A DNA stretch of 17,827 nt from the UHGV virus genome UHGV-0159506. The stretch is one strand, 5' to 3'. Position 1 is the first letter of the stretch. Each line of letters starts with the position of its first letter. The translations under genes were made by a program, and so were the position numbers. This document shows, in pieces, positions 5,142 through 5,287 of this stretch. Below the pieces are notes generated by a model that worked only from the letters and a program-made list of their open reading frames with translations, ran no database searches and had not been told where the DNA came from. The stretch comes from a virus.

Positions 5142-5198
5142 TTTTGTTTCCTCGTGAAGAACCTACTTAAGGGCAGAATGATACATTTCACAATCAAA

Positions 5199-5215
5199 AT
5201 TGCACTAATAATTTT
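5199..5215 (+). promoter_or_regulatory. C1-repressor operator-like site (15/17) in a divergent intergenic region
   Basis: Sequence ATTGCACTAATAATTTT against consensus ATTGCTCTAATAAATTT. A minus-strand -10-like TATCAT at about 5178-5183 lies just downstream, consistent with a repressor-controlled leftward promoter. Confidence 0.45.
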
Positions 5216-5287
5216 CTTTTATTGAGTTAAATAATCAACAAATGACTAGCGGTAGAATCACCATCATCTATTTCTGGCAGGCTGACT

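Follow-up and report, generated by a model that had tools for sequence, protein, structure and literature searches.

The pmgL/gene 26 spacer of a P1-type plasmid prophage: a very probable divergent control region with a C1 operator and an Lpa-type late promoter

How can two gene blocks that are read away from each other, and that were suggested to belong to opposite temporal classes, be governed from only 146 bp of DNA? The question is raised by positions 5142-5287 of the viral genome UHGV-0159506 (the whole stretch of 17,827 nucleotides that was analysed is called the window here), where a reading made from the sequence alone had noticed an operator-like site overlapping a leftward promoter candidate and a rightward promoter of a kind which should need an activator. 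On the evidence collected below, this segment is very probably the pmgL/gene 26 spacer of a P1-type plasmid prophage and serves as its divergent control region.

The identity of the locus is easily established. With positions 4300-6900 as query, megablast found phage P1 to be 98.9% identical across the entire 2.6 kb, and P7 as well as many P1-like phage-plasmids were also recovered; among complete genomes of E. coli, 578 records match the same segment, nearly all of them being plasmids. Coordinates of the P1 record AF234172.1 are converted into those of the window by a constant offset (window coordinate = P1 coordinate minus 1701), and each spacer element annotated in P1 is found at the equal offset here. 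The spacer agrees with P1 at 145 of 146 bases, the sole substitution being at 5234, where P1 has T and the window has A. The P1 pmgL-26 region (AF234172.1 / NC_005856; earlier fragment X87824) is the same locus, and neither the spacer nor its control elements are new, both having been annotated in phage P1 before. The significance of the present case beyond correct annotation is small; it does illustrate that a genuine operator for a repressor, and a late promoter that depends on an activator, can be recovered from raw sequence by a first reading. In the literature searched no paper mapping P1 start sites was found, and the texts retrieved with Op82, LP26 and pmgL were all unrelated. Features of the spacer and of its surroundings are compiled in Table 1. 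On the left, pmgL, whose product has a weak treble-clef zinc-finger match, opens the leftward pmgL-pmgM(-pmgN...pmgQ) block. A search of the whole window against Rfam gave no match in the spacer, all matches being the three tRNA genes, and a repeat search of the spacer revealed nothing beyond short repeats at chance level.

Table 1. Control elements, genes and other features in the window (positions count from its first letter)
Feature	Positions	Strand	Details	Basis
OpmgRb	1526-1542	+	C1 operator	operator PWM
OpmgRa	1575-1591	-	C1 operator	operator PWM
Oppp	4292-4308	+	C1 operator	operator PWM
pmgL	4896-5141	-	CDS, 81 aa, TTG start, GAGG Shine-Dalgarno 8 nt upstream	ORF list, P1 annotation
P26	4899-4927	+	annotated predicted promoter, rightward candidate	graded sigma-70 score
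P1pmgL -10	5178-5183	-	TATCAT, predicted sigma-70 promoter	sequence, AF234172.1
TTCACA-16-TAATTT	5187-5214	+	rightward candidate	graded sigma-70 score
O26 (formerly Op82)	5199-5215	+	C1 repressor operator, ATTGCACTAATAATTTT	consensus match, PWM, P1 annotation
P1pmgL -35	5200-5205	-	GTGCAA, predicted	AF234172.1
P2pmgL	5211-5238	-	predicted sigma-70; -35 TTGATT 5233-5238, 16-nt spacer, -10 GAAAAT 5211-5216	
LPpmgL -10	5230-5235	-	annotated late promoter; ATTATT here, AATATT in P1	AF234172.1
Lpa '-22' box	5240-5248	.	AAATGACTA, preceded by conserved AAC (5237-5248 in all)	P1 annotation, late-promoter alignment
LP26 -10	5253-5258	+	TAGAAT, 4 nt 3' of the Lpa box	sequence, P1 annotation
Gene 26	5288-5665	+	right border of the spacer	
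Late tail/baseplate operon 26-25-7-24-6-5	5288-10017	+		ORFs, P1 annotation, late-class RNA-seq profile
tRNA gene	12710-12782	-	P1 trnI	Rfam
Two tRNA genes	14242-14314, 14320-14392	-	P1 tRNA-Thr/tRNA-Asn pair	Rfam
Oban a/b	15050-15066, 15061-15077	+, -	bivalent C1 operator	operator PWM

The C1 repressor of P1 recognises an asymmetric 17-bp operator with the consensus ATTGCTCTAATAAATTT (PMC8546580). The 17-mer ATTGCACTAATAATTTT agrees with this consensus at 15 positions and is identical to P1 O26, where it lies at the same position (AF234172.1); the operator match had been placed correctly to the nucleotide by the sequence-only reading. Across the whole window, five sites match the consensus with at most three mismatches, as compared to 0.07 expected from shuffled sequence. 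Using a position weight matrix (PWM) trained on 13 P1 operators, all of which lie outside the window, O26 scores 24.4 bits, which is the second best value in the window, falls within the reference range of the 13 operators (7.1-27.2 bits) and exceeds the maximum of 100 shuffles (17.3 bits). All six operators annotated inside the window were recovered by this matrix, the other five (OpmgRb, OpmgRa, Oppp and Oban a/b) with 19-28.5 bits. The spacer holds no operator-like site besides O26, just as had been claimed, the nearest other one being Oppp. O26 is oriented such that it reads toward gene 26. A sub-threshold operator-like sequence, ATTGCATTAATAATCCT (11056-11072, 9.9 bits), was also noted at the ban/dbn junction.

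On the rightward side, all 11 annotated P1 late promoters were aligned and share the pattern (A/G)AC-AAGTGACTT-N4-TAnnnT, in which the 9-bp AAGTGACTT, an inverted repeat, serves P1 late promoters as recognition element. Of its 9 positions, the Lpa box in the spacer shares 7 with this consensus, and LPsit has exactly the same box. A late-promoter PWM was built from eight P1 late promoters, leaving out LP26, LPpmgL and the oddly spaced LPhot; the LP26 site (5237-5258, AACAAATGACTAGCGGTAGAAT) reaches 24.6 bits and is the top match of the whole window, where the maximum of 100 shuffles was 17.8 bits and the leave-one-out range of the eight references 14.8-25.6 bits. No good -35 partner for TAGAAT was found by the graded sigma-70 score described below, the best one (ATAATC) giving 4.8 bits in total, in line with the earlier description of this hexamer as lacking an obvious -35. 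The activator-dependent late promoter proposed on that ground does correspond to the annotated LP26, with late genes downstream, but the Lpa box itself had been overlooked. LP26 shows every sequence feature of an Lpa-type late promoter, from which its dependence on Lpa is predicted.

The leftward side is less clear-cut. A strict consensus scan for promoters and terminators found nothing between 4800 and 5600, but its promoter threshold is too stringent for these weak promoters, and it was replaced by a graded sigma-70 score, for which the base frequencies of the hexamers were set after classic compilations; the scores are approximate. On this scale P1pmgL (GTGCAA-16-TATCAT) obtains 6.2 bits, whereas P2pmgL (TTGATT-16-GAAAAT) obtains 8.4 bits, ranks 19 among about 178,000 candidates in the window and is the top sigma-70-like candidate of the spacer. 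Due to the substitution at 5234, the P2pmgL -35 reads TTGATT here and TTGAAT in P1. By consensus, both candidates are weak. The leftward promoter with the -10 TATCAT that had been proposed earlier is thus present and corresponds to P1pmgL, but the higher-scoring P2pmgL, likewise annotated in P1 as a predicted promoter, had escaped notice. O26 spans the predicted -35 of P1pmgL, as annotated in P1 and as the claimed overlap of operator and leftward -35 had it, and additionally overlaps the predicted -10 and start site of P2pmgL.

Are these elements conserved? A distant-mode DNA search of plasmids returned 491 copies, every one of them at least 95% identical, which precludes DNA-level footprinting over distant relatives; variation in IMG/VR and relatives found via protein were therefore used. 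Among 79 P1-like loci from IMG/VR, representing 28 spacer haplotypes, 29 of the 146 spacer positions vary, but only four of the 41 positions occupied by the operator, the box and the two -10 hexamers do so (hypergeometric P=0.04), namely the degenerate operator positions 12-14 and position 3 of TAGAAT. The operator core ATTGCACTAAT and AACAAATGACTA occur without any change in each of the 79 loci, and TATCAT is kept in 78 of them.

Relatives found via gp26 homologues (L085, L086 and L088-L091; gp26 73-85% identical) offer a wider view. In L088-L091 (gp26 81-85% identical), an LP26-like site of 16.9-22 bits lies upstream of gene 26, about 139 nt from its ATG in L089 and about 28 nt from it in the other three. 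Neither pmgL nor a C1 operator is found upstream of gene 26 (region about 2840-2975) in any of these relatives; a co-directional gene of 213 aa precedes gene 26 instead, and in L088-L091 a second late-promoter-like site was seen upstream of that gene. Since the relatives keep the LP26-like site without pmgL and without the operator, the late promoter seems to go with gene 26 and the operator with the leftward unit. In the most distant ones, L085 (a Pantoea-type element) and L086, a box is found in the same place, but diverged (AATTAACCT / AACTAACCT), suggesting, as far as sequence can tell, co-evolution with their Lpa orthologue.

Expression data for P1 speak directly to the timing. In a published RNA-seq study of P1vir (PMC8201110 Table S1), the WT log2 fold changes at 10 and 30 min were 3.35 and 10.4 for gene 26, 3.6 and 10.7 for 25, 4.4 and 11.6 for 7, 3.9 and 11.5 for 24, 3.6 and 10.8 for 6, and 4.2 and 9.9 for 5; for the leftward genes they amounted to 7.0 and 11.0 (pmgL), 8.0 and 12.0 (pmgM), 5.4 and 9.6 (pmgN), 7.4 and 11.8 (pmgO), 7.0 and 11.3 (pmgP), 6.9 and 11.5 (ppp), and 7.0 and 11.7 (pmgQ). 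At 10 min, the WT median is 6.99 for pmgL-pmgQ as compared to 3.77 for genes 26-5, and the two blocks are completely separated in both host strains (Mann-Whitney p=0.0012); by 30 min both have reached about 10-12 log2 units. Values of the right block cannot be told apart from those of 31 reference late genes (p=0.25) and lie far from the early ones (p=7e-6); the left block, in contrast, stands apart from the late genes (p=3e-6) and is near 21 early genes controlled by C1 (p=0.055), a nearness in timing and not in C1 dependence, as P1vir makes the antirepressor constitutively. In a second dataset (bioRxiv 10.64898/2025.12.28.696737), pmgL stands at 5.5 after 10 min and 8.1 after 20 min, as against 0 and 2.2 for gene 26, and its list of genes induced by 10 min has pmgL-Q alongside ref, ssb, kilA, repL, dmt and ban. 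In two P1vir datasets, the two blocks do fall into the different temporal classes that had been claimed, pmgL-pmgQ being early-like and 26-5 late, although 'early (plus possibly late)' versus 'late only' may be the better wording, given that the late promoter LPpmgL is annotated on the same box.

In view of the AT-rich spacer and of the strict scan that found no promoter, one may ask whether all these matches are simply what AT-rich DNA offers by chance, with no regulatory role. We consider this extremely improbable and, in practice, refuted: the operator and LP26 both score above all 100 whole-window shuffles, the elements are nearly invariant over the 79 loci while the flanking spacer varies, divergent relatives retain an LP26-like site, and the predicted difference in timing between the gene blocks is seen.

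A more specific objection concerns the direction in which the operator works. O26 points toward gene 26 and is named accordingly in the P1 annotation, which hints that the P1 authors linked the operator to the rightward gene; C1 bound there could then mainly block a rightward sigma-70 promoter and keep the tail operon silent in lysogens. The candidate TTCACA-16-TAATTT, with 7.9 bits and a -10 inside the operator, would suit such a role, but the annotated P26 has only 3.7 bits, and early expression of genes 26 and 25 is absent even in P1vir, in which C1 is counteracted: at 10 min gene 26 is among the lowest of the late class, and in the second dataset it stands at zero. The relatives that lack pmgL, furthermore, retain LP26 yet have no operator. 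A rightward sigma-70 promoter TTCACA-16-TAATTT under the operator was rejected, gene 26 not being early, and we regard a mainly rightward action of O26 as improbable.

The element which remains most debatable is LPpmgL, which, like the Lpa box and P2pmgL, the sequence-only reading did not name, all the elements it did name being present. According to the P1 annotation, LPpmgL and LP26 use one common 9-bp '-22 region', the Lpa box. Read leftward, the late-promoter PWM gives -16.2 bits here and -10.2 bits in P1, far from the 14.8-25.6 bits of the references, and LPpmgL thus does not conform to the late-promoter model. Its -10 reads ATTATT instead of AATATT due to the substitution at 5234, and this hexamer has six alleles among the 79 loci (46 loci have AATATT, 25 have ATTATT and the rest carry four rarer forms); the A at hexamer position 2 that is present in all eight model late promoters is missing from ATTATT. 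Expression of the genes behind LPpmgL is not confined to the late period, pmgL-Q being induced already at 10 min. We hence regard LPpmgL as doubtful; its annotation finds little backing in sequence or population and could be refined in P1 accordingly. The further proposal that LPpmgL is non-functional, at least as the ATTATT allele, and that pmgL-pmgQ are a purely early, C1-controlled block of enzymes, is offered tentatively, its chances being in our opinion slightly short of even. If it were correct, the 'putative morphogenetic' name of pmgL-pmgQ would have come only from that predicted promoter, the block would comprise enzymes (a VRR-NUC-like nuclease, a Ser/Thr phosphatase and others), and the A/T polymorphism that is common at 5234 would be neutral, or else would turn a weak late contribution on and off.

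The opposite possibility is that the Lpa box fires both ways, through LPpmgL and LP26, which would place the leftward operon under dual control, early by C1 and late by Lpa. Such an arrangement would supplement the divergent control region as understood here rather than exclude it. LPpmgL is, after all, annotated as a late promoter in AF234172.1, the geometry is symmetric, with a 4-nt spacer on both sides of the box (hexamers at 5230-5235 and 5253-5258), the Lpa box is a partial inverted repeat, and several P1 genes are said to carry early as well as late promoters (PMC10695390). Between 10 and 30 min, the leftward genes also gain 4.3 log2 units, as compared to a median of 2.7 for early genes, but early genes without a late promoter rise equally (ban 5.0, ssb 4.1, repL 4.3, lpa 5.3). 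Considering in addition the strongly negative leftward scores and the variable leftward -10, we hold a bidirectional box to be possible but rather unlikely.

Whichever way LPpmgL is finally judged, the name of the leftward block deserves attention. Its proteins include a VRR-NUC match just under the Pfam cut-off and a clear metallophosphatase match, and by these signatures the gene products look enzymatic rather than structural. Deletions of leftward genes were reported to be non-essential (PMC10695390 Table 2). Because of this enzymatic look and the reported non-essentiality, an early accessory block fits pmgL-pmgQ better than the label 'putative morphogenetic', and the P1 annotation could be refined in the sense that pmgL-pmgQ behave as early genes and not as morphogenetic ones.

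Some observations concern the rightward operon further downstream. An unannotated late-promoter-like sequence, AACAAGTGACTGGTGATAACCT (6942-6963, plus strand), lies inside gene 7 (6896-7624), 46 nt into the gene, and is identical in P1; it scores 22.2 bits, which is in the range of real P1 late promoters (14.8-25.6) and above the shuffle maximum of 17.8. In relatives, this site forms an island of nucleotide conservation (ACAARTGACCGGTGATACGCT) amid a variable acidic N-terminus. Judged by its sequence, it could be an internal Lpa promoter boosting genes 24-6-5. CRISPRi knockdowns of genes 26 and 25 were reported to be non-polar on gene 7 (PMC10695390); the internal site was considered as the cause and rejected, as it is situated downstream of the gene 7 start and cannot explain the non-polarity. 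In gene 24, an essential tail gene, 22 bp are deleted at 8263/8264 in comparison to P1 (CACCGGCACCGCCGACAACAGG is missing), by which the reading frame is shifted; the ORF stops at 8282, some 90 nt short of gene 6, and approximately 45 residues are missing from its end. The frameshift is the mark of a defective prophage or else of an error in assembly.

How, then, might the divergent control region work? To the left, one or two weak sigma-70 promoters would transcribe pmgL-pmgM early, probably continuing into pmgN-pmgQ, although the early expression of pmgN-Q may instead originate from their own promoter PpmgN with the operator Oppp and not from the spacer. In a lysogen, C1 with the corepressor Lxc at O26 would block RNA polymerase by steric occlusion, and since O26 covers the -10/+1 of P2pmgL as well as the -35 of P1pmgL, C1 would occlude either leftward promoter; either of the two may be the one that fires, and its repression by C1 is inferred. 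Lxc strengthens C1 binding (PMC8546580), and the general roles of C1, Lxc and Lpa have been described (PMC8546580, PMC10695390). To the right, Lpa is expected to recruit or activate the host RNA polymerase, with the help of host SspA, at the -35-less LP26, where the box AAATGACTA, centred near -22, would replace the -35; in this manner LP26 would switch on the tail/baseplate genes late in infection. C1 would control LP26 indirectly only, because lpa itself is behind a C1 operator (Olpa, upstream of lpa). Host SspA reportedly takes part with Lpa at P1 late promoters, a finding for which PMC8201110 cites Hansen et al. 2003.

The arrangement is not unique in P1. The lyz-ssb spacer, with LPlyz, P2ssb (Pr21)/P1ssb and Ossb (Op21), has the mirror image of the pmgL-26 layout: in both, a late -10, a 4-nt spacer and the Lpa box stand back-to-back with an early -35, and one C1 operator, at or just past the early -10, takes in the -35 of a second promoter in tandem, the gap between operator and box being 27 nt in lyz-ssb and 24 nt in pmgL-26. 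Beyond these motifs the two spacers have no sequence homology, and the operator is directed with the early transcript in lyz-ssb but against it in pmgL-26. In the P1 annotation, P2ssb is entered simply as a sigma-70 promoter, while the promoters of pmgL bear the word 'predicted'. The late promoter LPsit of the tail tube/sit operon, finally, is a close counterpart of the rightward half: ACAAATGACTA and the -10 TAGAAT are identical to LP26, 11 nt of the segment 5237-5248 agree with LPsit, and both promoters serve tail genes; unlike LP26, LPsit is paired neither with a C1 operator nor with a divergent early unit.
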